A stretch of DNA of 64,000 nucleotides. It comes from an archaeon. GTDB taxonomy: Archaea; Nanobdellota; Nanobdellia; Pacearchaeales; GW2011-AR1. The position numbers were made by a program, and so were the translations under genes. Location: NCBI GenBank assembly GCA_021107855.1, contig JAIORZ010000002.1, positions 64,148-128,147 on the forward strand, given 5' to 3'. The notes beneath the pieces are model-generated. The model ran no database searches. It saw only the letters and a list, made by a program, of their open reading frames with translations, and was not told where the DNA came from. Below are positions 2,681 to 58,838 of this stretch, one piece after another; the stretch's first letter is position 1; each line of letters opens with the position of its first letter.

Positions 2681-5600
2681 TTATGTCGCCACCAGCTCGA
2701 CCAAGCATCCACTCGGCACATTTCCATGAACATCTTTACATCGAATAAAATATTTCTTTCCCTTAACAACCCCAAATTCAAATTCCTTACCCTCCCCAAT
2801 CGAAACACCCTCATCCCAAACAAACTTACATCCGTCAAGCGAATATTTACACTCCGCTCCCTCATTCAAAATCAAATTCACAAAACTTTGGTCCTGCCAA
2901 ATACGACTAACCTGAGGAATCGAGCTATCATGAATAATTTCAAACTCAGTAACACCCCTAGCAAAATCCCCAGTCTCATCCTCGCACTCAACAAAAATCT
3001 CATTCCTTCCGGCTGGACGATTAAAAATCTGCGTATGCATTCTATTTCCTCCCGTCTCAAACAACTCAATCATATTCTCATAACCCGAAAACGAATACGA
3101 ACAAAAATGCTCTTCTCCTCCACCAGAAGTCGCAATCCTCAATTCAACCGTCGTCATATCAGTACTCGTCTGAAAATCAGTCCCCGGCTCAACACTATCA
3201 ATCACAATCACACTCTCCGGCCTCCGAACCTCATAAACAAAACTCCTCAGATTAAAATTACGCTCACTATCATTCAACCACGGCTGGTCCCCACATCTAA
3301 TATAATAAGTATAATTCTGCCTCTGCTCCCCCAACAACAAAGTACTATTACAAACATAACCTAAAACATCCGACGGAGCACCGAAAGAATCCCCACAATA
3401 CATCTCATTCTCCATCTCCGAATGTATAATATCTCTCTCACTCCACCAACAAGTCGCCAACTCATTTGTCACAATCTCCAACTCAACCTCTCCAACAACA
3501 ACCCCAACCAACTCATCATTCTTAGGCGTCGTCTTAACAACCCTTGGCGCACTAATATCCTCACCCTCATTCACACACATCTCAATCTCATAAAATCCAT
3601 CATTCAATATTCCATAAACATCCTGACACCTCACAAACAAACTCAAATCCCCAGTCCAATTATAACCCTGACTCTGCCCGTGACTCGGATCCGGCAAACT
3701 AAAAACCGTCGTATGGTTTATCAGATAAGCATTTCCCCCCAAATCCTGACCCAAACTCTCAAAATCCGTCGCCTCAAAATCAAACTTACAATGCGCCAAC
3801 TCACTCGTCACGACACCAAACATCAAAGGAGTATAAGCATCAATACAGCCTCCCCCACTAGGATTCAAACTAAACCCAGAACTACTGACATCATCATAAA
3901 TAATCCCATCCGAAATCACATCATACTGCGGACTAAGCACAGGCGCCTTCCCATCATCCTCCATAGCACCACACAACTCATTATCAGTCCCAACATTCAT
4001 CAATTCACATGCCGCCCCCAAACTCTCGCACCGGTATTCCGAGCACGGCTTCAGCGGGTCATCATTACACTTCTCACAATCAGCTCCCCCAACAGGCGCC
4101 TCCCATGCCTTACATTCAAACTCAATCTCAATATCATCACAATCACCTGCCCCAAAAAGACTACCAAGAATCATTAATATTACACCTATTATAATTATAG
4201 CCCATCCAACTGGTCCTATCGAAGCAAGACCAGCCCCCAATCCATACCATCCAACAACCGCCCCAATCAAAGCTCCCCCAACTGCCATCAACATGGTCCC
4301 ACCCGGACTCAATTCTAAATAATTCGCCAACATAGTCCCTACAAGCATTCCAATAGAAGCACCCATAGCAGCACCACCAAAAGCACTCAGCCCGGGACTA
4401 CTTCCCAAAAGACCTCCTTCAATAACAGTCATCCCCAAAACCGAACCAGACGTAAGAAAGCTTATCGCCATCGAAACCCCACTCAAACCACTCGCAAAAT
4501 CTTGCATCTTATCCCCAGTATCATCAGCACTCGCATTCAATGACGTCGATGGTCCCCAAATCCCAGCCGCTTCCAAAAACACCGAATAATTTTCAACTTC
4601 CGCAAACTGCCCCGGAACAGGTTTCGCCAAATCTTTCAACTTATCAACCCAACTAGAAGAAAGAAAGAGACTACTATCCGTTACGCCATCCTTAGTAACA
4701 TCATAATTTTCACTATACTCCCCCACAATATTAACCGACCCACCACAATCCCCAAGTCCCCTACAAAAATCATTCATCTCCTCCGCAAAAACACTAGTCA
4801 AACAATCCTCATTCGCAACATATTCACACCCTCTTCCCCATTTCTCACCCTCTCTCACAACCGTGCATGTTTGAGTCCCCATCCCACAAAGTTTCGACGC
4901 CGTAGTCATAGACCTCTCCTCACTTAAACTAAATCCCGCCGGATATTGTGGCAAACAAATATCAAACTCAAAGTAATCCGCAACATCAACCGTCTCAATC
5001 CTACAATTCAACGCACTCTCACAAGCCGTCGTTCCATCTTCCTCGCTATTCAAATTAATACACTCTCTCCAATTATTTGCCACACACGCAGAATCCCGAA
5101 AAGGAACACTCTTTCCATTAACATCAAACTCATCAGCCTGAATACAAATCTGATTTCTATAATCCGCACAAGGCTCAACCACCACAACTCCCTGCGAACA
5201 GACATATCTCCAGTGCCTCGACCCTACAACATCATTCCCTTCCCCAATTGCCCCATCATAAACACACCAAGACTCCCCATTCCTATAGCTCTCTCCCTTA
5301 AAAAGACACGAAGTATCCCTACAATAAAAATCCCCAATATCAACATTAAAATTATCCTCATCAGCCGAACTACAAATACTCCCCGCAAATCGATTACAAT
5401 TTCCACATTCTTCGGAATTCGCATTCCCACCGTCTATATCTCTACTCCCACAAAGGTCTTCCAACTCAGCGACCCTATCCCAATAATCCACATCATCAAC
5501 TTTCCACACATTATAAATATTCGCAGGGTTCCCACAAGAATCAACAAAATAAACCCCATCTTTCCCATCCACACATTGCGTCTGCCTCGTCATCTCACAA

Positions 5601-6349
5601 CTCGTATTAAGCTCAGGAGAGGTGCAAAGATAATCTTCAAAAAAATCTCCACCATAATTATGACAACTCTCCCCTGTCACAAACTTACAAGCTCCACCCT
5701 CTAAAACACAAGCCCCTTCCTTTTGCTCCGTCGCTAAAAGAAAACACCCTGCCTCATTTACATCCTTCCTCCAATCCACACCACCACTATCCCCAAGCGC
5801 CAAAACAAAACTATCAACCTGACACTGCCCCTCGGTCTCATAACTGGTTTCTGCTCCTAAAATACAACAACCCAGAGCGGCACCAGGCAGATTACAATTC
5901 GGATCCTTAACCCACTCCGTCAAACAATCAACCGACAGAACATTCCTATCATAAATCCCAGATGCTTCATCATAACAACATCCCTTCCGACAAAACGCAG
6001 TATCCTTACAAAGCAATCCCTCGGCAAAAGGAGAATCCGCAACACAATTATCAGGAGCGGACGTGCCACACCTTTGCTCATCTTTAGAAATAAAACAACA
6101 ACCAAATCCCTCAGCGAGTGAAGAAATCTCATAAGTTGTCCGCGTCTCATTCCTAAACAAATGACTTCTCTGTGTCCTATTCCACCACTCCTCAAAACTA
6201 AACTCCTCTTCCTCTTCCGCCGAGACCAATGAGAAAACCACATCACTTAAACCAATAAAATAACAAAACGCAAAAAGCGAAACCATCATCAGCATCATCT
6301 CTACACCAGCCACAACCTTTCTACTCCTCACCTTCTTTTTTGTTTCCAT
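2681..6349 (-). CDS. Giant (1222 aa) Cys-rich membrane-integrated surface protein, family not recognised
   Basis: The ORF has an N-terminal hydrophobic anchor (VVAGVEMMLMMVSLFAFCYFIGL). About 600 aa of very Cys-rich sequence follow (GCCYD, GCCILG, CGNCNRF). Four Gly-rich hydrophobic helices lie at nt ~4147..4493. Four ~90-110 aa modules then follow, each bracketed by conserved Cys (A.CK[FY] ... Y.[IV]RC.D..GN). Confidence 0.85.
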   Translation of the reverse strand: METKKKVRSRKVVAGVEMMLMMVSLFAFCYFIGLSDVVFSLVSAEEEEEFSFEEWWNRTQRSHLFRNETRTTYEISSLAEGFGCCFISKDEQRCGTSAPDNCVADSPFAEGLLCKDTAFCRKGCCYDEASGIYDRNVLSVDCLTEWVKDPNCNLPGAALGCCILGAETSYETEGQCQVDSFVLALGDSGGVDWRKDVNEAGCFLLATEQKEGACVLEGGACKFVTGESCHNYGGDFFEDYLCTSPELNTSCEMTRQTQCVDGKDGVYFVDSCGNPANIYNVWKVDDVDYWDRVAELEDLCGSRDIDGGNANSEECGNCNRFAGSICSSADEDNFNVDIGDFYCRDTSCLFKGESYRNGESWCVYDGAIGEGNDVVGSRHWRYVCSQGVVVVEPCADYRNQICIQADEFDVNGKSVPFRDSACVANNWRECINLNSEEDGTTACESALNCRIETVDVADYFEFDICLPQYPAGFSLSEERSMTTASKLCGMGTQTCTVVREGEKWGRGCEYVANEDCLTSVFAEEMNDFCRGLGDCGGSVNIVGEYSENYDVTKDGVTDSSLFLSSSWVDKLKDLAKPVPGQFAEVENYSVFLEAAGIWGPSTSLNASADDTGDKMQDFASGLSGVSMAISFLTSGSVLGMTVIEGGLLGSSPGLSAFGGAAMGASIGMLVGTMLANYLELSPGGTMLMAVGGALIGAVVGWYGLGAGLASIGPVGWAIIIIGVILMILGSLFGAGDCDDIEIEFECKAWEAPVGGADCEKCNDDPLKPCSEYRCESLGAACELMNVGTDNELCGAMEDDGKAPVLSPQYDVISDGIIYDDVSSSGFSLNPSGGGCIDAYTPLMFGVVTSELAHCKFDFEATDFESLGQDLGGNAYLINHTTVFSLPDPSHGQSQGYNWTGDLSLFVRCQDVYGILNDGFYEIEMCVNEGEDISAPRVVKTTPKNDELVGVVVGEVELEIVTNELATCWWSERDIIHSEMENEMYCGDSFGAPSDVLGYVCNSTLLLGEQRQNYTYYIRCGDQPWLNDSERNFNLRSFVYEVRRPESVIVIDSVEPGTDFQTSTDMTTVELRIATSGGGEEHFCSYSFSGYENMIELFETGGNRMHTQIFNRPAGRNEIFVECEDETGDFARGVTEFEIIHDSSIPQVSRIWQDQSFVNLILNEGAECKYSLDGCKFVWDEGVSIGEGKEFEFGVVKGKKYFIRCKDVHGNVPSGCLVELVAT

Positions 6350-6352
6350 ATT

Positions 6353-7123
6353 TTAAATCCCCGGCGCGAACGCACAACTCCTCACAGCAAACCGAAACTC
6401 GTCTCCACTCCTCCTATCAATCAACCGATAAATCTTACTGCCCGAATAATCAATTCTTCTAATATCATACCTAGGATACAAAAGCATATACCCATTATAC
6501 TCAAAATTACAAAACTGCGACTCACTGTTCACAACATCCCGAGCCACACTAACCAAATCATAAATCGGCGACACAACTTCAATCCCAAAATCCTTAGAAC
6601 TCTGAGTCCCCATATCCCCAGAAATATCAACCTGCCTCGACAAATCAACCTTAACATACCCAGGCAACAAATCAACAGAAAAACTCATCACACCAATCTC
6701 AACATCAAAACCCTCATCCCTAAAACTCTCCCTCATCCTATCAAAACAACTCTCTACCCCACCCGATATATCCTCCTTAATCTCGCTCTCAATTCTCAAT
6801 TCCAACATCGGATGAATATTATAACATCCCTGATAAAAATCCGCCTGATAACACAAATAATTCCACTCTTCCCCCTCATACAAAATGGCCTGCGATGGCA
6901 CCGCCTCACCACCATTCCTCATCATCTTATCAACCGAATCCTTAACCAAATCAGAAACACATCCCCTAACAATAGTCCGCGGGTCCAAATTATCAGCCCT
7001 ATCAACACCAGTCTCTCCCAAAAGCAAAAACGACAAAAGAATCATAGCTACAATCACGATACTAACCATGAAAAAAATCGCCACCTGTCCTTTTGTTCCA
7101 ACACCCATTTTTTTATTTACCAT
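6353..7123 (-). CDS. Pilin-like protein with candidate class III signal peptide (256 aa)
   Basis: The N-terminus MVNKKMGVGTKGQVAIFFMVSIVIVAMILLSFLLL has a KG-Q motif plus a hydrophobic helix. It is a paralogue of 1900..2643. Its ATG shares one nucleotide with the stop of 7123..7824 (TAATG), which suggests translational coupling. Confidence 0.75.
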   Translation of the reverse strand: MVNKKMGVGTKGQVAIFFMVSIVIVAMILLSFLLLGETGVDRADNLDPRTIVRGCVSDLVKDSVDKMMRNGGEAVPSQAILYEGEEWNYLCYQADFYQGCYNIHPMLELRIESEIKEDISGGVESCFDRMRESFRDEGFDVEIGVMSFSVDLLPGYVKVDLSRQVDISGDMGTQSSKDFGIEVVSPIYDLVSVARDVVNSESQFCNFEYNGYMLLYPRYDIRRIDYSGSKIYRLIDRRSGDEFRFAVRSCAFAPGI

Positions 7124-10201: not shown

Positions 10202-11785
10202 ATGGTAGAAACTCCATCAAAAGTCCAAAACATCGCCCAGTCCCACTACTCTCGCCCAGACATCCAAAAAGCCATGTTCGACTTCTGCAAACACAGAGAA
10301 ACCGTCGCCAATTTCAACAACAAATTCTTCGCAAAACGCCCAGACACATTCGACTACCCATCAGACATCCTCAACCAAGCCAAACAAGGCGCAACATCAT
10401 TCCACTGCTCCGAAGAAATCTGGACAAACCCACTCGACATCAACACGGACATGACACCCCAACAATACAACGAAATCAGAACGGGCTGGGACCTAATCAT
10501 AGACATCGACTCTCCCTACCTCGACTACGGAAAAATCGCAGCCCACCTCCTAATTAAAGAACTCGAAAATCACGGCATCCAAAACATCGGAATAAAATTT
10601 TCAGGCTCAAAAGGCTTCCACATAATAGTCCCATTCAAAGCATTTCCAGAATCCGTCGACGGTGTTAAAACAAAAGACCAATTCCCAGACTGGCCACGAG
10701 CAATCGCCCAATACCTATTCAACAAAATCAGAAACCCAATGAACGAAGAAATCCTCAAACTCTCAAGCAAAGAAAAACTAAAAGAACAAGGCGAACTAGT
10801 ATCAGAGCACACTTGCCCAAAATGTAGTCAACCAACAATAAAAAAGAAATTCTGGAAATATAGGTGCCCAGACATAAAATGCAAAACAGAAATTGAAAGC
10901 CCAATAAAAAAGAAGGTCGTAATGTCTTGCCCATCCTGTAACGCAAAAATGAAATTAGAAGGCAAAAGAGAAGTAGACTTCTGCAAAGTCTGTAAAATCA
11001 ACACCGCCAAACTAGAAGCCACAAGTTCATATGGAGGAGTCCAACAACAAAATCTCCAAGAGCAATTCAAAGAAGAAATCACAATCAAATCAACAGAAGA
11101 CTCCGTCGACATAGTCCTAGTTTCATCCCGCCACCTCTTCCGCGCCCCATACTCCCTCCACGAAAAAACCGCCTATGCCTCAATCCCAATCGACAAATCA
11201 CAAATCCAAACCTTCAGTCCCTCAGACGCAGAACCCATCAAAATCACAAAAATAAAATCCTTCATGCCAAACTCAATCAAAGACGAAGCCACAAAACTCC
11301 TGACAAAAGCCCTAAAAGAAGCCGAAAAAAACAAACCAAAAGAAACCCAAAAAAAATACGACGGCAAAGGAATCGACCTAAAAGGACTAACAATAACAGA
11401 AGAAATGTACCCACCAATCATAAAAAAACTCCTCCTAGGCATCCCAAACGACGGCAGAAAACGAGCCCTGTCCCTAATGCTGGCATTCTTCACCTCCCTA
11501 GAATTTCCCCAAGACTACATCGAAGAGAAAATAGAAATATGGAATAATAAAAATTACGCCCCACTAAAACAAGGCTACATCAAATCCCAAATCGCATGGT
11601 CACTAAAAAACAAAAGATTACCCCCAAACTACGACAAACCAATCTACAAAGAATTTGGAATAACCGCACCACCAATCCCTGGCATGAAAAACCCAATTAA
11701 TTATACCATAAAAAGAGCATTCGCAGCAAAACCCAAAACTTCAGAAAAGTTCTACATAAAAGCAAAAAACAAGGGAGAAATATAA
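10202..11785 (+). CDS. priS: DNA primase, fused PriS catalytic domain plus PriL-CTD-like helix bundle
   Basis: AEP primase motifs are present: WDLIIDIDSP (DxD), KFSGSKGFHIIVPF and SRHLFRAPYSLHEKT. An inserted Cys4 x2 zinc-ribbon region reads CPKC..CPDIKC..CPSC..CKVC. The C-terminal part (YPPIIKKLLLGIPNDGRKRALSLMLAFF...LPPNYDKPIY) resembles a PriL/PriX-type bundle but lacks the usual Fe-S cysteines. Confidence 0.85.
   Translation: MVETPSKVQNIAQSHYSRPDIQKAMFDFCKHRETVANFNNKFFAKRPDTFDYPSDILNQAKQGATSFHCSEEIWTNPLDINTDMTPQQYNEIRTGWDLIIDIDSPYLDYGKIAAHLLIKELENHGIQNIGIKFSGSKGFHIIVPFKAFPESVDGVKTKDQFPDWPRAIAQYLFNKIRNPMNEEILKLSSKEKLKEQGELVSEHTCPKCSQPTIKKKFWKYRCPDIKCKTEIESPIKKKVVMSCPSCNAKMKLEGKREVDFCKVCKINTAKLEATSSYGGVQQQNLQEQFKEEITIKSTEDSVDIVLVSSRHLFRAPYSLHEKTAYASIPIDKSQIQTFSPSDAEPIKITKIKSFMPNSIKDEATKLLTKALKEAEKNKPKETQKKYDGKGIDLKGLTITEEMYPPIIKKLLLGIPNDGRKRALSLMLAFFTSLEFPQDYIEEKIEIWNNKNYAPLKQGYIKSQIAWSLKNKRLPPNYDKPIYKEFGITAPPIPGMKNPINYTIKRAFAAKPKTSEKFYIKAKNKGEI
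11641..11785 (+). repeat. 145-nt imperfect direct repeat, copy 1 (functional 3' end of primase)
   Basis: The copy aligns without gaps to 11959..12103 and begins with an identical 15-nt run, aatctacaaagaatt. Confidence 0.85.
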
Positions 11786-11797
11786 CTCCCCAAGTCC

Positions 11798-11858
11798 GCA
11801 AAATAAAATTTTAGGCGCAGGTGTCCATTGGACGGCGCCGTAAAAAATTTTATTTTGC
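11798..11858. repeat. Long hairpin / inverted repeat
   Basis: gcaaaataaaatttt (11798..11812) pairs with aaaattttattttgc (11844..11858). The stem extends inward through ggcgc/gcgcc and gtcc/ggac. Confidence 0.8.
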
Positions 11859-11866
11859 ATTAAACA

Positions 11867-11914
11867 CTATATCAAAAAATCATTTTTCTATGGAAAATTA
11901 ATTTTTTGATATAG
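11867..11914. repeat. Perfect 14-bp inverted repeat with 20-nt loop
   Basis: ctatatcaaaaaat (11867..11880) pairs with attttttgatatag (11901..11914). Confidence 0.85.
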
Positions 11915-11937
11915 CTAATTAAGAGGGTACACATCTG

Positions 11938-11953
11938 AGGGAGATATCTCCCT
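11938..11953. repeat. Perfect 16-bp palindrome agggagatatctccct
   Basis: Read directly from the sequence. The palindrome is centred on an EcoRV-like gatatc. Confidence 0.85.
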
Positions 11954-11958
11954 GGGAT

Positions 11959-12103
11959 AATCTACAAAGAATTCGGCATTACATCACCCCCAGCTCCAGG
12001 CATCAAAAACCCAATCAACTACACTATAAAAAAAGCCTTCGCCGCAAAATCAAAGACATCACAAGATTTCTACGTAAAACAAAAAAACAAACACGAAATA
12101 TAA
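11959..12103 (+). pseudogene. Orphan copy of the primase 3' end (48 codons, IYKEFGITSPPAPGIKNPINYTIKKAFAAKSKTSQDFYVKQKNKHEI*)
   Basis: The fragment is in-frame with no internal stop but is cut off upstream by TGA at 11936..11938. About three quarters of the nucleotides match 11641..11785. Its TAA (12101..12103) abuts the stop of convergent gene 12104..13084. Confidence 0.75.
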
Positions 12104-13084
12104 CTACTTCCCTTTCTTCTTAACCTTCTTCCTGGCAGGCTTCTTCCTCATTAAAGCTTTCTTCCTTGCTAAGGCCTTCTTCTTTTTAGCAGCCGCTTCC
12201 TTAGCAGCCATCTCTTTTCTAGCAATAAAAAATATAAACAAAATCAATCCAAGTAAAACTAAAGCAAACAGCCAACTTCCAGCACCACCACCAATAACTG
12301 CACCAGTTATCATAGACAAAAATCGATTAGCCTCAACATTTTCAGGTTCAACATCCGAACTCGAAACAATGGTGTCATCATCAGAACTAACATTTACACT
12401 CTCAGCCACATAAGTCCCATTAGAAACTAAAGAATACGCTCCTCCACTAGAACTGCCACCACTCGATCCCCCTCCACTACTACCTCCACCACTGCCACTA
12501 CTACCACCAGAGCTACAAGCACCACAATCAGCAGCACAACTTGAACAATCCTCTCCACTATTACAAGCACCATCTCCACAAAAAGGAGCAGTACAATTAG
12601 AATAATCAAAAGTACAAAAACCCGTACAAGACAATGTCCCAGTAGCACCTAAAATCCCCAAAACATTTTCACAAGTTCCAACTCCGAGCATAGACCCATC
12701 ACACTGTTCACCGGGCTCCTGAATACTATTCCCACAAACAGCATACAAAGGTTCCTCATCAATTATCAAATCCAATTCACTAAAATCACCCGCCTCATAG
12801 ATAGCAGTCGGATGCGCCTCAATACCTCCAATATAAAAAGTAATCTCTCCCGTTCTCCCCTGAGGATCAATCATCACACTATAAGAATTCCCGGAATCAA
12901 CATTACCAACAACACCCAACCCATAACCATCTATCGAGGCACTAATTTCTGAGTCAGTTAAATCCCACAAAGGGTCTTCAGAATAAGTCGCATTCCCCGA
13001 AAAAGCATTAGGTATACTCGGGATAGCAAAAACAAAACCTAACAACAACAATCCCACCACAACAAACAGCACTTCCTTTCTCAT
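12104..13084 (-). CDS. Anchored surface protein with Cys-rich repeats, Gly/Ser linker, C-terminal TGAV-type anchor and Lys-rich tail
   Basis: A signal peptide is followed by CGNSIQEPGEQCDG and CGDGACNSGEDCSSCAADCGAC motifs and a (GGS)n linker. The C-terminus reads FLSMITGAVIGGGAGSWLFALVLLGLILFIFFIARK plus a poly-Lys tail. Confidence 0.75.
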   Translation of the reverse strand: MRKEVLFVVVGLLLLGFVFAIPSIPNAFSGNATYSEDPLWDLTDSEISASIDGYGLGVVGNVDSGNSYSVMIDPQGRTGEITFYIGGIEAHPTAIYEAGDFSELDLIIDEEPLYAVCGNSIQEPGEQCDGSMLGVGTCENVLGILGATGTLSCTGFCTFDYSNCTAPFCGDGACNSGEDCSSCAADCGACSSGGSSGSGGGSSGGGSSGGSSSGGAYSLVSNGTYVAESVNVSSDDDTIVSSSDVEPENVEANRFLSMITGAVIGGGAGSWLFALVLLGLILFIFFIARKEMAAKEAAAKKKKALARKKALMRKKPARKKVKKKGK

Positions 13085-25364: not shown

Positions 25365-25408
25365 ATTATTTAGTGTTTTGTAGCTTTATAAGGTTTTGCC
25401 ACTTTTAA

Positions 25409-25437
25409 ATAGTATCAAAACGCAAACTTTATAAATA
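25409..25437 (+). promoter_or_regulatory. Conserved BRE/TATA promoter module, copy 1 (upstream of galE)
   Basis: atagtatcaaaacgcaaactttataaata matches 26436..26464 at 26/29 nt. The TATA box ends ~20 nt before ATG 25457. Confidence 0.55.
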
Positions 25438-25456
25438 AAATTCCCCGCTAAAATTA

Positions 25457-26407
25457 ATGAAAAACATTTTAGTAACAGGAGGAGCAGGCTATATTGGGAG
25501 CGTCTGTGTAAAAAAATTAATTGAAAAAAATAAAAATGTTATAGTTATTGATAATTTATCAAAAGGATTAAAAGAATTAGTTGATAAAAAAGCTAAATTT
25601 TATGAAGGTGATTTATGTGACAAAAATTTTATTGATAGAATTTTTAACGAAAATAAAATTAATGAAGTTATCCATTTTGCAGGATACAAAGCAAGCAGAG
25701 AATCAATGAAAGATGTAATTAAATATTCTCAAAATATCACCGGGACAATTAATCTTCTAGATACTATGATTAAATACAAAGTTAAATTAATTGTCTATTC
25801 CTCATCTGCCGGTGTTTATGGCAACCCAGAAAAGAAAATTATTGACGAAAATTGTAATACAGATCCGATCAATTATTATGGATATACCAAACTCGCATGC
25901 GAAAACCTAATAAAATGGTACTCCAAAATTTACGGCTTAAAATATTGTTTCTTAAGATATTTTAATGTAGCAGGAGATGGCGGACTCGATTATATTGATC
26001 CAGATGCCCAAAACATTTTCCCTATAATTATGGAAGTTATTTTTGGGATAAGAAAAAAATTAGTTATTTTTGGAGAAGATTATAATACTAAAGATGGAAC
26101 ATGTGTTAGAGACTATGTTCATGTATTAGACTTAGTAGATGCCCACATTTCTGCTTTGGATATTAAAAAAAATTGTGCATTAAATTTAGGTAGCGGAGAA
26201 GAATTTTCTCTCAAAGATTTAGTTAATACAACCGAGAAGATTACAGGCAAAAATTTTAATTTTGAATTTGGAGAAAGACAAGATGGTGAACCTGATTTTT
26301 TAATGGCCTCTAATTTGAAAGCTAAAGAAGTTTTGAATTGGACACCCAAATATTCTCTTAGAGACATGATTGAATCTACTTATGAAGTTTATAAGAAAAA
26401 AACTTAA
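25457..26407 (+). CDS. galE: UDP-glucose 4-epimerase (SDR family)
   Basis: The Rossmann motif ILVTGGAGYIGS and the catalytic YGYTK (YxxxK) are present. The product is 316 aa. Confidence 0.85.
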   Translation: MKNILVTGGAGYIGSVCVKKLIEKNKNVIVIDNLSKGLKELVDKKAKFYEGDLCDKNFIDRIFNENKINEVIHFAGYKASRESMKDVIKYSQNITGTINLLDTMIKYKVKLIVYSSSAGVYGNPEKKIIDENCNTDPINYYGYTKLACENLIKWYSKIYGLKYCFLRYFNVAGDGGLDYIDPDAQNIFPIIMEVIFGIRKKLVIFGEDYNTKDGTCVRDYVHVLDLVDAHISALDIKKNCALNLGSGEEFSLKDLVNTTEKITGKNFNFEFGERQDGEPDFLMASNLKAKEVLNWTPKYSLRDMIESTYEVYKKKT

Positions 26408-26435
26408 AGATTCTAATAGTTTTTATTACTTTAGG

Positions 26436-26464
26436 ATAGTACCAAAACACAAACTTTATAAACA
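26436..26464 (+). promoter_or_regulatory. Conserved BRE/TATA promoter module, copy 2 (upstream of GT2 gene)
   Basis: The sequence is atagtaccaaaacacaaactttataaaca. A third, partial copy (cgcaaaactttatatt) lies at 31567..31583 upstream of 31610. Confidence 0.55.
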
Positions 26465-26490
26465 GGATTTTCTCTCAAAATATATACAAA

Positions 26491-27207
26491 ATGGCAAAAA
26501 ACAAAACAAAACAAAAAAGCGTGTCTGTTGTTATCCCTGCACTAAATGAAGAGGAGGCAATCAGAACCGTAATAAAAGAAGTTCCCGTTAATAAAATTAA
26601 GAAAATGGGATATAAAGTTGAAATACTAATTGTTGATAATGGGTCTACTGACGAAACTGGACACATTGCAAAAAAGAACGGAGCGACAGTCTTTGTTCAG
26701 CCCGTAAGAGGTTATGGCAACGCATATAAAGCAGGATTCGCAAATGCTCATTCAGATATTATTATCACTGGAGACGCTGATTGTACCTACCCCTTTGAAG
26801 ATATTCCAAGATTTTTAAAAATAATGGAAGAAGAAAATTTAGATTTTATTAATACCGACAGATTAAGTACTGTCACTAAAGAAGCTATGCACACATCACA
26901 TATTTTTGGGAATTGGTTTTTGGCAACTATTATGAGAAATTTGTGGAAAGGAATTCCATTTAAAGATTCTCAATCTGGAATGTGGATATTCAAAAAAGAA
27001 ATCTGGAATAAATTACATGTTAAATCTTGTGGAATGCCATTCAGTCAAGAGTTAAAAATAGAAGTCTATAAAAAAGGGTTTAAGTGTAAAGAAGTGATCA
27101 TAGATTATAGGGCAAGAGTTGGTGAAGTTAAGCTTGATGGCTGGAAAGATGCTGTAAGAAATACAACTCATCTTTTTATTAAAAGAATGAGCCTAATGGG
27201 GTTCTGA
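26491..27207 (+). CDS. GT2 glycosyltransferase, dolichyl-phosphate sugar synthase-like
   Basis: Typical GT-A family 2 motifs are present: VSVVIPALNEEEAI, VDNGSTDET and GDADCTYP. Confidence 0.75.
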   Translation: MAKNKTKQKSVSVVIPALNEEEAIRTVIKEVPVNKIKKMGYKVEILIVDNGSTDETGHIAKKNGATVFVQPVRGYGNAYKAGFANAHSDIIITGDADCTYPFEDIPRFLKIMEEENLDFINTDRLSTVTKEAMHTSHIFGNWFLATIMRNLWKGIPFKDSQSGMWIFKKEIWNKLHVKSCGMPFSQELKIEVYKKGFKCKEVIIDYRARVGEVKLDGWKDAVRNTTHLFIKRMSLMGF

Positions 27208-27211
27208 GGGG

Positions 27212-28345
27212 ATGGCCAAAAAATTAGCATTAGTTTACGATGCAATTTATCCTTACATAAAAGGCGGAGGAGAAAAGAGATTCTACGAAGTTGCAAAGAA
27301 ATTAGCTAAAGATTATGAAATTCATTTCTATGGTATGAAATTATGGAAAGGAGAAGATGTTATACAAAAAAACGGGATTTATTACCACGGAATTTGTAAA
27401 AATATACCACTTTATACCGATGAAAAAAAAAGATCCATTAGTCAAGCAATTCGTTTTGGGTTTTCTAGTTTTAAATTAATTAAGGAAGATTTCGATGTTA
27501 TTGACTGCTGTGGATTTCCATACTTCTCTCTATTTCCTGCAAAAATCGCTTGTCTAATAAAAGGAAAACCACTAATCACAACTTGGCACGAAGTCTGGGG
27601 AAAAGAATACTGGAAAGAATATATCGGATGGAAAGGTGTCTTCGGATATTGGGTTGAAAAGATGGCTTCTAAGTTGCCAAATAAAATTATTGCAGTTTCA
27701 AGCCATACTTCACAAAGACTTCAAAAAATATTAAAAGTTCCAAAAGAAAAAATAATGATTATTCCAAATGGAATTGAACTAAAAGATTTTAATAAAATCA
27801 AGCCATCAAAAGAAAAATCAGATATAATCTATACGGGAAGGCTTCTTAAAAATAAAAATATAGATTTGTTAATTAGATCAATAAATAGAATAATTAAAGA
27901 TAAGAAATATAAAAGTATCAAATGTATGATTGTGGGAGATGGGCCAGAGAAGGAAAACCTCATTAATCTTACAAAGCAACTAAAATTAGAAAAAAATATT
28001 AAATTTAAAGGGTTCATAGAAAAACACAAAAGAGTTCTATCTTTAATTAAATCAAGTAAAGTTTTTATCTTACCTTCAACAAGAGAAGGATTCGGAATCG
28101 TAGTCATCGAGGCAAACGCACTCGGCACCCCAGTCATCACAATTAACCACCCAGAAAACGCCTCATCCTCTCTAATAAAAAAAGGAGTTAACGGATATAT
28201 CTCAGAATTCAATGAAAATGACTTATCAAAGAAAATAAAAATCGCAATTGATAATTCATATAAGATGGGAAACAAATGTATTGATATGGCTAAGACATAT
28301 GACTGGAATAATGTAATTAAGAAGTTTGAGGGGGTGTATAGATGA
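27212..28345 (+). CDS. GT4 (Glycos_transf_1) glycosyltransferase
   Basis: The C-terminal signature reads LPSTREGFGIVVIEANALGTPVI, in a 377-aa GT-B layout. Confidence 0.75.
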   Translation: MAKKLALVYDAIYPYIKGGGEKRFYEVAKKLAKDYEIHFYGMKLWKGEDVIQKNGIYYHGICKNIPLYTDEKKRSISQAIRFGFSSFKLIKEDFDVIDCCGFPYFSLFPAKIACLIKGKPLITTWHEVWGKEYWKEYIGWKGVFGYWVEKMASKLPNKIIAVSSHTSQRLQKILKVPKEKIMIIPNGIELKDFNKIKPSKEKSDIIYTGRLLKNKNIDLLIRSINRIIKDKKYKSIKCMIVGDGPEKENLINLTKQLKLEKNIKFKGFIEKHKRVLSLIKSSKVFILPSTREGFGIVVIEANALGTPVITINHPENASSSLIKKGVNGYISEFNENDLSKKIKIAIDNSYKMGNKCIDMAKTYDWNNVIKKFEGVYR

Positions 28346-29253
28346 AAACTTCATTTGTAATAATTGCATATAACGAAGAAAATACCATAGCCAATTGTAT
28401 CGATTCTATTCTAAAACAGAAGGGATTAGGTAGTTATGAAATAGTGATTGTAAACGATGCATCAAAGGATAATACAGCAAAAGTTGTAAAAGAGATTAGG
28501 AGTAAAAATATTAATCTAATAAGTTTGAAAGAAAATAAAGGGAGAGGGAACGCAAGAGACACTGGAGTAAGAAATACCAAAGGAGAATATATTGCCTTTA
28601 TTGATGCGGACATAGTTTTACCAAAAAATTGGCTAAAGACTTGCATGACTTATATTAGAAAATACGATGCGGTTGGTGGAATTGCAGTTCCTGATGGAGA
28701 CGTAGCATACCTCTACAATAAATTTAGACTAAAGCCAAAAACAGTATCACACACAACAGAGATCACAGGAAGTAATTCACTATACAAGAAAGATATTTTC
28801 AAAAAAATTAAATTTAATAAGAATTTGAGGGGCGGGGAAGACACAGATCTGAGTTGGAACATAGAGAAAAATGGATTTAAAATTAAAGCTATTCCAAATT
28901 TAATCGTAGATCATAGAGAAGATATAACCTATCGAAGATCGCTGGAGAGGATCAGTTCTTTTGGAAGAGGCGCAACAAAACTCTTAGCAAACAACAGGAA
29001 AATTCGTTTAGCAGATTTGGCATTCTTTGGATTTTTATTCTTATTAATCGGAAACTTAATTTTACTTTTGATTGGAGAAACAAAATATCTCATACTAATT
29101 ATTCTATATCCTCTTCTGACAAGTTTCTTACATATATCCTCTAAATTTAAAATAACTAATATCTCTGGGTTTATATTTGCAGGTCTTTTTAATTACATTT
29201 TTATCTTAGCCTATTACTCAGGAAGGATTGTAGGATTTTTTAAAAATGAATAA
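28342..29253 (+). CDS. GT2 glycosyltransferase with C-terminal membrane helices
   Basis: Motifs SFVIIAYNEENTIANCIDSIL, VNDASKDNT and FIDADIV are present. Two or three TM helices lie at the C-terminus. The start overlaps the previous gene by 4 nt. Confidence 0.75.
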   Translation: MKTSFVIIAYNEENTIANCIDSILKQKGLGSYEIVIVNDASKDNTAKVVKEIRSKNINLISLKENKGRGNARDTGVRNTKGEYIAFIDADIVLPKNWLKTCMTYIRKYDAVGGIAVPDGDVAYLYNKFRLKPKTVSHTTEITGSNSLYKKDIFKKIKFNKNLRGGEDTDLSWNIEKNGFKIKAIPNLIVDHREDITYRRSLERISSFGRGATKLLANNRKIRLADLAFFGFLFLLIGNLILLLIGETKYLILIILYPLLTSFLHISSKFKITNISGFIFAGLFNYIFILAYYSGRIVGFFKNE

Positions 29254-31549
29254 AATGAAAATTTTAGGTAATCAGATGGACATTACAATAAATAAGATTT
29301 TCTATAGCATGCTAACATTTATGATTCTAATGGATATCTTGATTATTTCTAATTTAAATGTGTTTTATTTTGGAACAATTTTATCATTTTTATTTATAAT
29401 AATTATCCCAGGACTTTTAATCATGTTAGCACTAAAAATCCGAGGGGTTGGGTTTTGGGAATACATTTTATATATTGTTGGACTTAGTATTTCATTTATC
29501 ATGCTTGCAGGATTAACCATTAACTGGATTTTACCATGGCTAAACATTACAGATAAACCTTTAGCGACTTGGCCAATATTAATTTGTTTTAATTTATTCT
29601 TAATCGTTTTATGGATTATTGCGAAGAAGAGAACCCGAGATATTAAATCATTTAAATTTCGACCTAGGAGATTAGATATATTAAATACAGTTATGTTTAC
29701 GGTTCCAATACTCTTCCCTGCCCTTGCAGTTCTTGGAGCACTTCTATTGAATAATGATGGATCGAATATTTTGTCGATGACGATGTTAGCGGGAATAGCG
29801 ATTTATGTCTTTGCGGTTATTTTCTTTAGAGAAAAGTTAAATCCGAATATTTATCCCTGGGCCATCTTAATGATAAGTATATCTTTGTTACTTATGTTCA
29901 GCTTAAGAAGTTGGAATATCAGCGGATTTGATATACACGAAGAATATCATGTATTCCAGCTAACAAAAAATACTCTTCATTGGAGCCCTTCAAATTTGCC
30001 AGGACACGCCTATAATACGTGCCTAAGTATTACAATATTGCCAACAATATTATCATGGTTTTTAATGATTAATGACCAATTCCTTTTCAAAATATTTTTC
30101 CAGATTATTCTTAGCTTTGTCCCCGTGGGAGTTTACTTAATAGCAAATAGATACATAGAAAAGAAATGGGCATTTTTAGCAAGTTTTTTCTTTATGTCCC
30201 AATGGACATTCATTAATGAGATGCCTGCATTAATTAGAGAAAATATAGCAATCTTATTTTTTACTCTTGTCATACTAATATTTTTTAATAAAGATAATAT
30301 AAATCCCTCTATAAAAAAAGCATTTTTTCTCATCTTTGGAATTAGTGTGATTTTTTCTCATTATAGCACCTCCTATCTAATGAACGTAACTTTTATTTTA
30401 GCTCTTTTATTTTTGATTACAGTAAGTTTTTATAAAAGATTCTTGAAGAAAGAAAGAACAAAGAAAGAACAAAATCATAAGATTATAAAATTTGGCACTA
30501 TATTAATTCTAATATTATTCTTATCGACATTCGTATGGAATATTCAATTAACAGAATCTTCAGGAGGATTGGTTAAGTTAGTCAAAGAGGTAGTTTATGA
30601 CACAAAAAATATTCTAAGTTATGAAGCCATGGCAGGGGAGTCCCAAAAAATATTATTAAAAATTATAGACAAAAATCAAGAGACAACAAAAAATTTCAAA
30701 AACTTCATTAGCGATACGGAAAATGACTATTTTTATAAAAAAATAAGTAGAGAGGATTATCAAAGATATACCTCCAATTTGATAACTCGAGAATACAAGG
30801 AACCTATCAATAAGAGCTTTTGGAAGATTTCTGCAAAGACATTATCTTTAATAACAATAGCTTCATTCCTATTCTTAATTCTTGGGTTAATTTCAATGTT
30901 ATTTTCCAAGAAGATAGATATAGAGTATAAGATGCTTTCAATGGTTTTAATGTTCATGTTGTTTCTGGTTTTGTTATTACCGACGGCATCATCATACTAC
31001 AATCCAATAAGGCTATATCAACAAATATTAATAATGGTATCAATTGCAGAAATAATTGGGATAATTACTTTCTTTAAGATTATTAAAGTAAAACCGAAGG
31101 CACTTGTAATAGTAGGATTTTTTATTTTTTATTTTTTATTTTATTCAGGATTTATGCAAGAGTTGACTGGGGGGAATTCCTTAACCGCAGATTCTTATGC
31201 ACTTAATAGCAATAGCGATTATTATTATTTTTATTATTCTCATAATTCGGAAGTGGATTCAGCAATATGGTTATCTCAAAATAGGGATAGTTCCATGATT
31301 TTTGCAGACGAGGTCGCGAGTCTAAGATTGTATTCTTTTGGCGGCATGCGGGGATTTAAGTTCGATGTCATTCCCCAAACTATAGAAAAGAAGTCATATG
31401 TATATCTTGATGTTCGTAATAAATTTAAGGAAGAAGCCTACAAAAGATATCTAAGTAAATATGGCTTTAGGTACAACTTCCCAACGGATTTTCTCAATGA
31501 AAACAAAAACCTTATTTACTCCAATGACGAAAGTGATATTTTTAAATAA
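29246..31549 (+). CDS. Large polytopic membrane protein (767 aa), DUF2206-like; possible glycan polymerase or GT-C-type transferase
   Basis: The protein has more than 15 predicted hydrophobic helices plus a soluble C-terminal domain. It sits in a glycosyltransferase cluster. The family assignment is from memory of archaeal DUF2206 architecture only. Confidence 0.5.
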   Translation: MNKMKILGNQMDITINKIFYSMLTFMILMDILIISNLNVFYFGTILSFLFIIIIPGLLIMLALKIRGVGFWEYILYIVGLSISFIMLAGLTINWILPWLNITDKPLATWPILICFNLFLIVLWIIAKKRTRDIKSFKFRPRRLDILNTVMFTVPILFPALAVLGALLLNNDGSNILSMTMLAGIAIYVFAVIFFREKLNPNIYPWAILMISISLLLMFSLRSWNISGFDIHEEYHVFQLTKNTLHWSPSNLPGHAYNTCLSITILPTILSWFLMINDQFLFKIFFQIILSFVPVGVYLIANRYIEKKWAFLASFFFMSQWTFINEMPALIRENIAILFFTLVILIFFNKDNINPSIKKAFFLIFGISVIFSHYSTSYLMNVTFILALLFLITVSFYKRFLKKERTKKEQNHKIIKFGTILILILFLSTFVWNIQLTESSGGLVKLVKEVVYDTKNILSYEAMAGESQKILLKIIDKNQETTKNFKNFISDTENDYFYKKISREDYQRYTSNLITREYKEPINKSFWKISAKTLSLITIASFLFLILGLISMLFSKKIDIEYKMLSMVLMFMLFLVLLLPTASSYYNPIRLYQQILIMVSIAEIIGIITFFKIIKVKPKALVIVGFFIFYFLFYSGFMQELTGGNSLTADSYALNSNSDYYYFYYSHNSEVDSAIWLSQNRDSSMIFADEVASLRLYSFGGMRGFKFDVIPQTIEKKSYVYLDVRNKFKEEAYKRYLSKYGFRYNFPTDFLNENKNLIYSNDESDIFK

Positions 31550-31609
31550 TATTAACAAATTAAATTCGCAAAACTTTATATTATTGAATAAACATTAATT
31601 CTCATAAAA

Positions 31610-33217
31610 ATGGAAAAAATTAATTCAACAAAACAAATACTTAATTTTAGAATATTTATTTTTTTAATTTTAGTATTTACTATCTTCAATATTTCTATAA
31701 TTCTTGCATCAGAAACATCAGTCCAAACATGCAATCAGTCCTGGTTAGATTTTGATGGAATTAATGACGGGGTTGTTATTCCTTTTATAAATACCTCTTC
31801 TGAATTAACTTATACTTTTTGGTTTAAAAGAAATAATATAACAATAACTCAAGATCCCTTTGCTGAAATGAATGGTTTAATTAGAACTACCTCTACACAA
31901 ATTTTATATTGGCCAAATACTGATAATGGGAACAAAGCTTTAGATTATACTCCTGATAAAAATTGGACTTTTATAGCAGTTACGCATCAAGGAAATAAAT
32001 GCTCAATTTATAAAGATAATTCTAGTGTGGCTAGTTTTGCAGATTGTAGTACTATAAATACTAAAAATGCTGTAAATAATCTTGGTTCATATGGAATTTT
32101 TAATCATGTAAATGGTTCTATTGATGATGTCAGAATATTTAATCGTTCTTTGGGCTCTGAGGCAGTTATGGACATTTATTATAAACAAAGAGATCCTATT
32201 CCCTTACAATCTGGGGTTGTTGTTGTTAGTTATCATAATGTAGATAATATTGACACTACTTATTATGTTAATTTGACTAATTTTGATGCTCAAATGAGTT
32301 GGCTTAATAATTCAGGCTACACTTCTATAACTTATAGAGATTTTGTAAAATATACTCAAGGAAAATATATTTTGCCTGAAAAGCCTATTATTATTAGTTT
32401 TGATGATGGAAGCCTAAATGTTTACACAAATGCTTTTACAATTATGAAGAACTATGGATTTATTGGTTGTGCAAATATTATTTCTAGTCTTGTCGGAAAT
32501 GCTGGGAAAATGTCTTATACCCAGATTCAAGATTTATCAGATTCAGGTTGGGAGATAGTTTCTCATTCACAAACTCATTGTAATTTTATAACTTCCTGCA
32601 ATACCCCTCAAGATTGGATAAATGAATTTAATAATAGTAAAAGTTCTCTTGAAGGAAATTTAACAGGTGTTAATATTACAAGTTTTATTTATCCCTTTAC
32701 AACTTATAATGATACTTCAAATAGTTATGCAGATGATTATTATACTTTTGTTGGAGGTTATGATTGGTATAATCCTATTACAAAAATATTAGATTATGGG
32801 TATAAACATACTAATCCTATTGGAGGTTTAGATAGATTTGGATTAACTAATACTACCACCTTAAATATGTTTCAACATGCAGTTCTCCAAAATAATGATT
32901 TAAAAATGCAATTAAACTTTGATGAAAACTCTAGCACAATTGCCTATGATTCTTCAGGCAATGAAAATCATGGCATAATTTCAGGGACCACTTGGAATAG
33001 TGAAGAAACTTGTACAATAGAATACCCCATTGATCAAAGACTTTCAATATTAGAGTCATGGAAACAAACTATTGATATATGGAGAACAACAATAACTAAC
33101 ACTATAAATGGGCTAATAACAAAAACAGACAACCAACAAGAAGAAATTAATATTCTTAAATCAAGAGTTTCTGATTTAGAAAATCAAACCCTCTTGATTA
33201 TTAATGGGACTCTTTAA
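31610..33217 (+). CDS. Secreted LamG-like plus polysaccharide deacetylase (NodB) protein
   Basis: The LamG/concanavalin-like part reads LDFDGINDGVVIPF...GSIDDVRIFNRSL. NodB motifs IIISFDDGS and VSHSQTH are present. A second LamG-like fragment reads LNFDENSSTIAYDSSGNENHGII. Confidence 0.65.
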   Translation: MEKINSTKQILNFRIFIFLILVFTIFNISIILASETSVQTCNQSWLDFDGINDGVVIPFINTSSELTYTFWFKRNNITITQDPFAEMNGLIRTTSTQILYWPNTDNGNKALDYTPDKNWTFIAVTHQGNKCSIYKDNSSVASFADCSTINTKNAVNNLGSYGIFNHVNGSIDDVRIFNRSLGSEAVMDIYYKQRDPIPLQSGVVVVSYHNVDNIDTTYYVNLTNFDAQMSWLNNSGYTSITYRDFVKYTQGKYILPEKPIIISFDDGSLNVYTNAFTIMKNYGFIGCANIISSLVGNAGKMSYTQIQDLSDSGWEIVSHSQTHCNFITSCNTPQDWINEFNNSKSSLEGNLTGVNITSFIYPFTTYNDTSNSYADDYYTFVGGYDWYNPITKILDYGYKHTNPIGGLDRFGLTNTTTLNMFQHAVLQNNDLKMQLNFDENSSTIAYDSSGNENHGIISGTTWNSEETCTIEYPIDQRLSILESWKQTIDIWRTTITNTINGLITKTDNQQEEINILKSRVSDLENQTLLIINGTL

Positions 33218-33220
33218 AAA

Positions 33221-35296: not shown

Positions 35297-35428
35297 TTAT
35301 TTTTATCGTCTTTTTTCTTGCCCCTTTTTATCTAATATTATGTAGCTCTTCGTTTATAAAAATTCATAGGCTTAAACATCTATATAAAATTATGTCGATT
35401 TGTTCTAAATATAAAGATATCTGTAGAA

Positions 35429-39491: not shown

Positions 39492-39926
39492 TCAATCCCT
39501 TCTAACAACAAAAAATATCCCAACCGCACTCAAAGCAGTCAACATCCCAATAACAAATCCAAACTCAGGAACAACATGATAATTATCAAACTTATTATTA
39601 AAGTCAGCTTTATACACCCCACAATCTCCTTCCGCAACCTCATAAGCATCAAAACAAAAATACCCAGAATCATCAACAACATAACTTCCAAAAGCAACAA
39701 TATCATTAGGATCACAAGAAGCCTCTCCCGGCTGACCCTTTATTTCCCAATCATATTCCCCAGGAACAAAACCATCTCCCCTAATATAAACATGCTCCCC
39801 AATATCATACTCATTCGCATCTTGCGGAACACAACCCACCTTCGTAGTCCAAATAGCACCAGTCCCAGCACTAGCAAGACCAACAAAAAACATTCCCATC
39901 AACAACATAACAAATAATTTTCTCAT
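39492..39926 (-). CDS. PEF-CTERM-type sorting-signal protein (144 aa)
   Basis: The protein has a signal peptide and the C-terminus VVPEFGFVIGMLTALSAVGIFFVVRRD. It overlaps the upstream gene by 4 nt. Confidence 0.75.
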   Translation of the reverse strand: MRKLFVMLLMGMFFVGLASAGTGAIWTTKVGCVPQDANEYDIGEHVYIRGDGFVPGEYDWEIKGQPGEASCDPNDIVAFGSYVVDDSGYFCFDAYEVAEGDCGVYKADFNNKFDNYHVVPEFGFVIGMLTALSAVGIFFVVRRD

Positions 39927-40474: not shown

Positions 40475-40538
40475 AGAAAACCCACGAAGCTCATCTTTAA
40501 ATAAATTGTGGCAAAAAAACACTACCTATTAGAGACAA

Positions 40539-57976: not shown

Positions 57977-58035
57977 CTCTTCAAAAAATTAAAATACTCC
58001 TAAATTTTGTTATATATACAATCTCTATCAAAACC

Positions 58036-58043
58036 CTTATATA
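58036..58043 (+). promoter_or_regulatory. TATA box for GGDEF gene
   Basis: cttatata ends 23 nt before ATG 58066. Confidence 0.4.
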
Positions 58044-58065
58044 ACAATAAAACGTTAAAACAAAA

Positions 58066-58826: not shown

Positions 58827-58838
58827 TATTCATTAAAA

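Follow-up and report, generated by a model that had tools for sequence, protein, structure and literature searches.

Several systems are known in which a gene exchanges its 3′ end for one brought in from elsewhere and leaves the old end behind. In rhs, contact-dependent inhibition (CDI) and type VI secretion system (T6SS) loci, C-terminal displacement joins a 3′ end acquired by lateral transfer to a gene's conserved 5′ part and pushes the old end downstream as an orphan tip with a stretch of the conserved region; the process is recurrent and carries cargo (Jackson et al. 2009, PMC2935791; Kirchberger et al. 2017, PMC5361080). Homologous recombination with circles and homology-facilitated illegitimate recombination have been proposed as its mechanisms, the latter for displaced T6SS effector-immunity modules (PMC5361080). 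In E. coli, the prophage e14 (and phage 21) inserts into icd (PMC13626634; Hill et al. 1989 cited there); the replacement 3′ end that it supplies keeps the gene functional, and the native end persists at the far side of the insert as a C-terminal fragment, the icdC pseudogene. The two ends differ mostly synonymously, and recombination between them restores a single gene (PMC13626634). In archaea, integrated elements also target the 3′ ends of protein genes, restore the gene end and have been validated against empty sites (2019, PMC6563490). Here we describe a locus of the same architecture, at the DNA primase gene in a 64,000-nt stretch of DNA (hereafter, the window) from an archaeon of the Pacearchaeales (GenBank assembly GCA_021107855.1, contig JAIORZ010000002.1, positions 64,148 to 128,147). 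The primase has acquired a foreign 3′ end together with a structured spacer, its native end lies intact but silent downstream, a close relative retains the empty site, and similar displacements recur in other lineages.

The primase (10202–11785, + strand) is a 527-amino-acid protein with a PriS-type catalytic domain (Pfam DNA_primase_S) and a lineage-specific C-terminal region. It belongs to the archaeo-eukaryotic primases and has 2370 homologues, the best named ones being from Pacearchaeota and Nanoarchaeota; a sequence search of the PDB covered its catalytic domain only, with no structure match for the exchanged tail. Its last 48 codons and stop (11641–11785, + strand; hereafter S, the live end) complete an intact open reading frame (ORF), and a second copy of this end (11959–12103, + strand; hereafter O, the orphan) has an intact frame and stop but no start. 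S and O align without gaps, are identical at 113/145 positions (78%), including all of the first 15 nt, and encode peptides identical at 37/47 amino acids. An initial annotation, made from the sequence alone, had drawn attention to this pair, and its coordinates, gapless alignment, identical 15-nt start and quoted peptides all held up, as did its count of codon differences (15 synonymous only, 10 altering the amino acid). The frame of O is shut upstream by an in-frame TGA (11936–11938), no start codon lies between this TGA and O, and the ORF list contains no ORF in the region. At its other end, the TAA of O (12101–12103) immediately adjoins the stop of a convergent ORF (12104–13084, − strand) for a secreted or membrane protein; both boundaries are as first described. 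The starts of S and O are offset by 318 nt and are thus in the same frame. In-frame splicing or bypass of these 318 nt was considered and rejected, as nothing beyond the frame supports it and the frame would be shared one time in three by chance.

The differences between the two ends are those of diverged functional alleles. By codon position they are distributed 8/4/20, a third-position excess (20/32 differences; binomial p = 7e-4), and the ratio of non-synonymous to synonymous substitution rates (dN/dS, by the Nei-Gojobori method) is 0.12 with dS ∼1.2. The annotation had proposed that the copies diverged under purifying selection in different lineages and had named the distribution over codon positions beforehand as a check; the distribution is not random, and the proposal stands.

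Comparison with the locus of the closest sampled relative, L001 (primase P0002), distinguishes the native end from the newcomer. Outside two patches, the window's primase is 94–96% identical to that of L001 in DNA, and the proteins are 88% identical. The L001 primase ends with an O-type peptide, identical to O at 45/47 amino acids and to S at 39/47; in DNA the L001 end matches O at 133/144 positions (92%) and S at 112/144 (78%). Its stop lies 3 nt from the end of the same convergent gene, CTACTTCCCTTTCTTCTTA, whose 19-nt end is the same as in the window, with no spacer between. Because L001 has an O-type end beside the same convergent gene and lacks the spacer, O is on this comparison the native primase end, S plus the 173-nt spacer (318 nt in all) is a foreign insertion, and L001 is an empty site. 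This agrees with the annotation's reading of the downstream copy as the original gene end. Base composition shows the same division: GC skew is −0.27 in S and −0.50 in O, and third positions in S are 25% C and 12% T, as opposed to 42–48% C and 4–5% T in native parts of the gene, which O resembles. The closest match to S among 89 primase loci is only 81% identical, so the donor lineage is unsampled; a search with the S peptide for a donor protein matched only a 60-amino-acid orphan ORF in another locus, L081. O and L001 differ by 9 synonymous and 2 non-synonymous changes (omega 0.05). From dN/dS and this substitution pattern, O has been under selection for almost all of its history, and the displacement event is recent relative to the split of the window and L001. 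The L001 contig (7584–7606) ends 22 nt past the primase stop, exactly at the hot spot, where strain heterogeneity may have broken the assembly.

At the left edge of the insertion lies a 35-nt block of PPNYDKPIYKEF codons (11621–11655, + strand) in which the window and L001 do not differ at all; homologous anchoring, or the left crossover, probably took place here. The 15-nt run (11641–11655), which the annotation called a core, is simply a section of this block, and the block is nearly invariant in all sampled primases. This near-invariance is partly due to an extreme base composition that restricts codon choice. The first mismatch to L001 after the block is at 11656. Six mismatches cluster just before it, at 11603–11620, and may be the start of an imported tract that begins slightly upstream.

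The second patch in which the primase departs from L001 (10790–11100, + strand) falls in the Zn-ribbon insertion region. Identity drops there to ∼60–70%, with flanks at 94–96%, and there is no duplication. Its best match is L007 (79%), and its third positions are foreign-like (C 27%, T 11%). This second foreign patch shows that the primase does recombine with diverged lineages.

The spacer (11786–11958, + strand), absent from L001 and imported with S, is strongly structured. It reaches a minimum free energy of −60.3 kcal/mol, and shuffled versions −31.8 ± 3.7 (z = −7.7; 0/200 shuffles as good), and the other strand gives a similar result. As first reported, it is G-containing and built of three palindromes: G makes up 31/173 nt of the spacer, 18/145 of S and 13/145 of O, the higher share being a consequence of its self-complementarity, since the + strand of this genome is otherwise G-poor (G 11.9%, C 26.4%). 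A conserved structured element spans 11796–11930 (+ strand) and consists of hairpin 1 (11798–11858), the linker GCAUUAAACAC, hairpin 2 (11867–11914; 22-nt arms, 91% complementary) and a short tail. Hairpin 1 ranks third by folding energy among all 64-nt windows of the 64 kb. A third hairpin (11933–11958) contains a perfect 16-nt palindrome, AGGGAGATATCTCCCT, at 11938–11953, ending 5 nt before the right junction of the insert; it is loosely conserved in homologues as a YWGGGAR motif, seen by eye.

Using blastn, nhmmer and covariance models, we found homologues of hairpin 1, a GCAUUAAAYAC linker and hairpin 2 in four other Pacearchaeota lineages, one per locus and mostly downstream of primase. 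In L010 the element (6797–6944) lies between the PCNA stop and a winged-helix gene; in L024 (2723–2870) it is 1.3 kb downstream of primase, upstream of the gene that usually follows primase; in L086–L088 (5909–6047) it is 325 nt past the primase stop and 27 nt before a convergent gene; and L057 has hairpin 1 only (734–803), 35 nt past the primase stop. Across the four full-length lineages, in an alignment fitted to the structure, compensatory changes are seen in 19/44 base pairs, and pairing holds in 96% of cells. In control registers slid by 1–3 columns, pairing falls to 43–58% with 2–5 covarying pairs. The unpaired bases are also conserved, namely a CAGG(U) bulge, a GUAA loop and the linker. 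Among wobble pairs, U-G outnumbers C-A 8 to 1, which points to the + (primase-sense) strand as the one that folds. The annotation's alternative reading, a spacer resembling a structured RNA, is thus upheld by covariation.

Its preferred reading was a miniature, non-autonomous integrative insert, or an element like a miniature inverted-repeat transposable element (MITE), that carries a replacement gene end, and this fared less evenly. The insertion with its replacement end is supported by the empty site, but the MITE-like multicopy nature is not. The spacer's repeats occur once only in the 64-kb window, of a contig that extends for another 325 kb; the ends of the insert (11641..., ...11958) are not complementary, the inverted repeats being those of the internal hairpins; and the repeat that flanks the spacer is a diverged 145-nt gene end rather than a target-site duplication. 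By these comparisons the spacer is no multicopy MITE but a structured element that has been conserved. Viral, GTDB-genome and JGI-metagenome collections contained no exact match to a degenerate pattern of the hairpin-1 core, and blastn with the 318-nt insert found none in phage and plasmid records. No Rfam family reached its gathering threshold in the window (best sub-threshold E at least 0.07, far below gathering scores) or in L086, and ARAGORN found no tRNA in the window. The insert (11641–11958) has no ORF of 30 amino acids or more except frame artefacts, and no recombinase is encoded there or among the neighbouring genes.

As to function, the ascending arms of both hairpins contain A runs and the descending arms T runs, which makes a role as bidirectional terminator or insulator between convergent genes plausible. 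A scan for bacterial-type terminators, which is not designed for archaea, found only a small − strand hairpin at 11772–11791. The conserved bulges suggest a function more specific than termination, and in its overall form the two-hairpin element resembles a gene for a non-coding RNA or a structured element to which a protein binds. We noted a likeness of hairpin 1 to the bulge-helix-loop of archaeal splicing-endonuclease substrates (3–4-nt bulge, 4-bp GUCC/GGAC helix, variable apical insert), from which we draw no claim. A weak covariance-model match in L075 (19704–19764; 19.6 bits) has the GCAGG-(N)GUCC...GGAC(N)GC-GAUAA core of hairpin 1 with a different lower stem, and may be a distant relative.

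To place the window among its relatives, we searched for second copies of the primase C-terminus in 80 metagenomic primase loci, retrieved with an alignment of the C-terminal region, together with loci obtained earlier. The full-length primase, run against the genome collection, had retrieved just two loci. After dereplication, orphan primase ends were present in 7 of 66 lineages with at least 300 nt of downstream sequence, the window among them, and L081 provides an eighth event. What lies between live end and orphan varies widely: a ParE/antitoxin cassette in L002 (orphan of 18 codons), a 112-nt hairpin repeat in L015 (28 codons), 800 nt with a membrane-protein gene in L017 (57 codons), a ∼90-nt GC-rich spacer in L024, which is the same as L025 (∼35 codons), a ∼96-nt spacer of GCGAAGC mini-hairpins in L026 (∼34 codons), and 565 nt with a HEPN-like ORF in L056, the same as L069 (24 codons). 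L081 has an orphan of 60 codons beside AT-rich, unskewed DNA that runs for at least 1.1 kb. The remainder of this locus is 99.96% identical over 4.5 kb to L011 and L012, both of which have an intact primase; L081 (1–1325, against L011 from 10069 and L012 from 2022 onward) is therefore a strain-level polymorphism in which the primase body upstream of codon −60 has been replaced. The replacing DNA carries a WecG/TagA-like gene, named by eye from its translation, and the orphan was called as ORF P0121. A weak candidate of 6 terminal codons in L039/L040 was left out of the count, and matches in L004 and several other loci proved to be internal repeats or spurious opposite-strand ORFs.

Frame and stop are intact in all orphans. 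Differences between live end and orphan fall mainly at third positions in 4/4 testable cases, which are the window, L015 (3/4/11 by codon position), L017 (3/0/14) and L056 (3/3/10); the two copies in L002 are near-identical. The junctions of the eight events lie at codons −59, −57, −48, −35, −34, −28, −24 and −18 and have no common motif. Eight junctions without a shared motif argue against a single site-specific attachment core. In L017, ancestry switches exactly at the insert: PCNA and primase are 86–87% identical to L021, whereas the orphan and the downstream gene are 93–96% identical, so that the imported tract there extends far to the left. Outside primase, ∼1250 ORFs of at least 120 amino acids in the same 888 kb of loci yielded one gene with the displacement pattern, an ABC-transporter ATPase in L007 (11560–11865), where a live end, an 85-nt spacer of GCGAAGC hairpins and a 35-codon orphan with intact stop follow one another; the orphan is 69% identical to the live end in protein. 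Between an inserted gene and the usual downstream gene, L021 (11330–11480) has a stretch ...KPKPYYKTKPHN... followed by two GCGAAGC hairpins, which may be a decayed, older primase-end orphan.

The spacers resemble what follows primase elsewhere. Most lineages have a TATA box and a co-directional secreted-protein gene directly after the primase stop, and the others have assorted inserts. The window's element occurs 3′ of primase without an orphan in L057 and L086, and the entire L015 spacer is one copy of a ∼100-nt hairpin repeat, here called family 2, which L007 and L009/L014 likewise carry after the primase stop. Because the short spacers resemble primase-downstream DNA of other lineages, they can be taken as the donors' own downstream DNA, and the simplest reading is that each insert would be a contiguous chunk of a relative's genome, primase end plus whatever came after it.

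In family 2 copies, which are ∼90–110 nt long, TCCAYRAGAAA is followed by a GC mini-hairpin whose loop is GAAG, then by TTTYTYRTGGAA, a tail rich in A and C that is made of AACCAAAAAC units, and another small hairpin. Their stems covary between copies and CCAAGTG often precedes them, as in repetitive extragenic palindromic (REP) or MITE-like repeats. They are multicopy, with three copies in 12.8 kb of L007 (1120–1207, 2883–2933, 12421–12505); others lie in L015 (10256–10367, 8375–8427), L009 (1172–1241, 3321–3383), L019 (1817–1904), L008 (8150–8219), L018 (17270–17315) and, on the − strand, L086 (5747–5795). The heptamer GCGAAGC occurs 101 times on the primase-sense strand of the 888 kb against 14 times for its complement, with ∼17 expected for each. 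Some occurrences are a conserved run of primase codons; others cluster in intergenic spacers, including those adjacent to orphans, as GGGCGAAGCCC or GCGCGAAGCGC hairpins. Examples are L007 (11721/11748, 12746/12770), L018 (469/486), L021 (11438/11477), L031 (4615/4661) and L026 (2045/2117).

We therefore asked which process best accounts for these scars. Somewhat better than even, in our judgement, is C-terminal displacement by homology-anchored, one-sided recombination with a diverged relative. DNA of a diverged Pacearchaeota lineage entered the genome with its primase 3′ end and the structured intergenic element just downstream. On the left, it would have come to pair homologously in the conserved PPNYDKPIYKEF-coding block (∼11603–11655). 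On the right, where homology stops at the gene end and the downstream region is variable, it would find no homologous partner and would be joined illegitimately, 5 nt past the palindrome, at the position equivalent to 11641. Primase would then be read through S, and O would be pushed 318 nt downstream and fall silent. Several of the right joints lie directly past small hairpins; hairpins are hot spots for breakage and template switching.

In these gene-dense genomes the gap between primase and its neighbour is only 0–3 nt, and the 3′ flank of the convergent gene 12104–13084 lies inside O, where a T7 run can be read on the − strand. The survivors of such joins would be inserts that bring their own complete gene end, probably with their own terminator-like hairpins, that leave both genes intact and retain the recipient's last 18–59 codons. 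Given the narrow gap and the neighbour's flank within O, we infer that the surrogate end more likely reflects this survivorship filter than an adaptation of a mobile element. Primase would be struck time and again since, of the conserved genes, it is the last before a variable region begins. One-sided recombination with such a filter would explain why the end is a surrogate, why junctions and cargo vary and why primase is preferred.

Several points weigh against this explanation. The donor was not found among the loci, which keeps the left crossover and any microhomology at the right joint (11958/11959) out of sight. The foreign tract of the window starts within ∼40 nt of the position at which the orphan starts, a coincidence predicted by single-crossover integration of a small circle, as in the rhs model, and not by two independent ends. 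The mismatch cluster at 11603–11620, which would lengthen the tract, comprises just three codons, including six-fold degenerate Arg and Leu. Sequences that are 22–40% diverged should recombine only very rarely. The excess of events at primase could be due to a dedicated targeting mechanism instead, and the sample of loci is not unbiased, since primase C-terminal peptide patterns were used to retrieve them.

The main rival, which we regard as a real but lesser possibility, draws directly on the second of these points. A small circle (∼318 nt or larger), bearing a primase 3′ fragment from the IYKEF codons onward and the hairpin element, would have integrated in the manner of Campbell by a single crossover in the 15-nt identical run, with S as the circle's part and O as the host's. 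The geometry of the window fits this very well: foreign sequence begins at 11656, right after the only long run identical in S and O, and O is native-like over its full length. Homologous recombination with circular intermediates was moreover proposed by Jackson et al. for C-terminal displacement (PMC2935791). L017 does not fit, as its left side (PCNA and primase) is of other ancestry than its orphan and downstream gene. The model also needs crossovers within 15–17 nt of identity between copies only 60–78% identical, in several separate events, and the viral, genome, metagenome, phage and plasmid collections contained neither a free nor a second copy of the cassette.

We think it fairly improbable that the primase 3′ end is a dedicated landing site in Pacearchaeota for small hairpin cassettes with surrogate ends, the two-hairpin element being tied to the PCNA-primase locus. 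If true, such cassettes, among them the two-hairpin element, the family 2 repeat and the GCGAAGC clusters, would insert into genomes that have no intergenic space. The element with its CAGG(U) and GUAA bulges would then be a new non-coding RNA or single-stranded-DNA element, and could be a recognition structure for a recombinase or for primase itself.

A related idea, which builds on the annotation's integrative insert, is a non-autonomous integrative element of miniature size, or what is left of a larger one, that is site-specific for the primase 3′ end, carries the surrogate end in its attP and relies on an integrase in trans. Precedents exist, since archaeal integrated elements often target 3′-distal parts of protein genes (14/68 in Thaumarchaeota; PMC6563490) and e14 leaves icdC in the same geometry (PMC13626634). 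Primase ends are also struck far more often than other genes, the L015 spacer is a copy of a truly multicopy ∼100-nt hairpin repeat, and several of the hairpin elements have a short CCAAGT motif ahead of them. The window's 173-nt insert, however, has no ORF and no terminal inverted repeats, its element is single-copy per locus and occurs in three different contexts without orphans, the eight events have eight different junctions, and a scan of viral contigs for attP mimics found no primase C-terminal fragment on any of them. With no recombinase, differing junctions and a single-copy element, we hold such a mini-element to be distinctly unlikely.

That the assembly wrongly fused the primase ends of two strain variants is very improbable. 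This is a metagenome assembly, and the break of the L001 contig hints at strain heterogeneity, but the spacer shares no k-mer with primase at 11958/11959 and only 15 nt are common after the junction, the same architecture occurs with other spacers in independent assemblies from JGI, NCBI and ENA, and the spacer, too, is conserved in its own right. Tandem duplication of the primase end in situ, followed by divergence, can be dismissed with near certainty for the window, although the L002 copies, which differ at just 3/57 nt, may have arisen so: decay after local duplication gives the opposite pattern to that observed, in which the silent O is the conserved copy (92% to L001) and the expressed S is 22% diverged, mostly synonymously, with another third-position composition.

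Elsewhere in the neighbourhood, a divergent PCNA gene lies upstream of primase, and other neighbours encode a secreted protein and a PKD-domain protein. Strand asymmetry runs through the whole window (1–64000) independently of gene orientation, with GC skew of ∼−0.3 to −0.6 in most 2-kb windows; the pooled primase loci are likewise G-poor on the primase-sense strand (G 14%, C 23%), and the L086 clade is of ordinary composition. Two islands of low GC (0.28–0.33) are unskewed. One (25400–35300) holds a glycosylation cluster (epimerase, GT2, GT4, DUF2206, polysaccharide deacetylase) and the other (58000–62000) a GGDEF protein and a class V aminotransferase; both are probably recent acquisitions whose composition has not yet drifted. 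A direct repeat (39491–39579/39922–40010) was examined as a further orphan and rejected, being the shared C-terminal anchor of two adjacent live paralogues. These are secreted proteins (39492–39926 and 39923–40522, − strand) with an 88%-identical VPEFG...IFFVVR anchor that is PEF-CTERM-like. At the start of the window, direct repeats 72–79% identical (3–2209 and 4035–6668; spacing ∼4.0–4.5 kb) indicate a diverged segmental duplication of part of the gene for a 1222-amino-acid protein and its neighbours.

The primase scars point to a route by which foreign DNA can enter the gene-dense, reduced genomes of DPANN archaea: the segment brings a replacement end, and the native end is left as a datable scar. 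Their positions define a hot spot for recombination where the PCNA-primase block ends, present in roughly one of every ten sampled lineages and involving relatives 5–40% diverged, and the scars could be used to measure gene flow in uncultivated archaea. They also bring to light two uncatalogued families of structured elements in Pacearchaeota, the low-copy, strongly covarying two-hairpin element and the multicopy family 2 (the Rfam comparison covers the first of the two).

How, then, does this locus compare with the systems outlined at the outset? The e14 prophage is 15 kb long with its own integrase and a fixed attachment site, whereas the insert described here is 318 nt long and has no gene, and its counterparts have varying junctions; the empty site and the intact gene are shared with icd, and neither a recombinase nor a common crossover core was seen. 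Archaeal integrated elements measure kilobases, encode integrases or Cas1 and are bounded by identical attachment-site or target-site repeats of ∼13–70 bp (PMC6563490), in contrast to repeats of 57–171 nt that are 5–40% diverged.

REP sequences, bacterial interspersed mosaic elements (BIMEs) and MITE-type repeats are palindromic, hairpin-forming intergenic elements at gene 3′ ends. Set against this general picture rather than against any curated family, family 2 is similar, being multicopy and strand-biased with a short conserved motif ahead. The window's element differs in being single-copy per locus and ∼135 nt long, with two long covarying hairpins and conserved unpaired bases; as described above, it lacks the terminal repeats, target-site duplication and copy number of a MITE.

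Homology-facilitated illegitimate recombination combines one homologous anchor with one illegitimate joint, as would be the case here (de Vries and Wackernagel 2002; Prudhomme et al. 2002; Meier and Wackernagel 2003, cited in PMC5361080; PMC3240628). In the same sources it is shown experimentally only in bacteria, during transformation or conjugation, where ours is a case read from sequence, and recipient DNA is usually deleted in the classic cases rather than duplicated as here. For this mechanism the window has a candidate anchor block and L017 a one-sided break in ancestry; the microhomology expected at 11958/11959 would be legible only beside a donor sequence.

The closest likeness is to rhs, CDI and T6SS displacement. 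A foreign end with a downstream orphan is found in both, as is recurrence. There, the gene is a polymorphic toxin, its tips are functionally distinct and come with an immunity gene, and orphans form arrays. Here, the gene is an essential, single-copy replicative primase, the ends are orthologous alleles with no gene in the window's spacer, each locus has one orphan, and the window's cargo is a 173-nt structured element. A limited literature search found no description of primase-type displacement in compact archaeal genomes, and displacement appears to be unreported for a core replication gene in them. The event itself is of a known kind, C-terminal displacement; what sets this case apart is that, with no recombinase in evidence and with junctions that are not fixed, it exchanges orthologous ends, can bring in an insert as small as one structured element, and has a replicative primase as its target.

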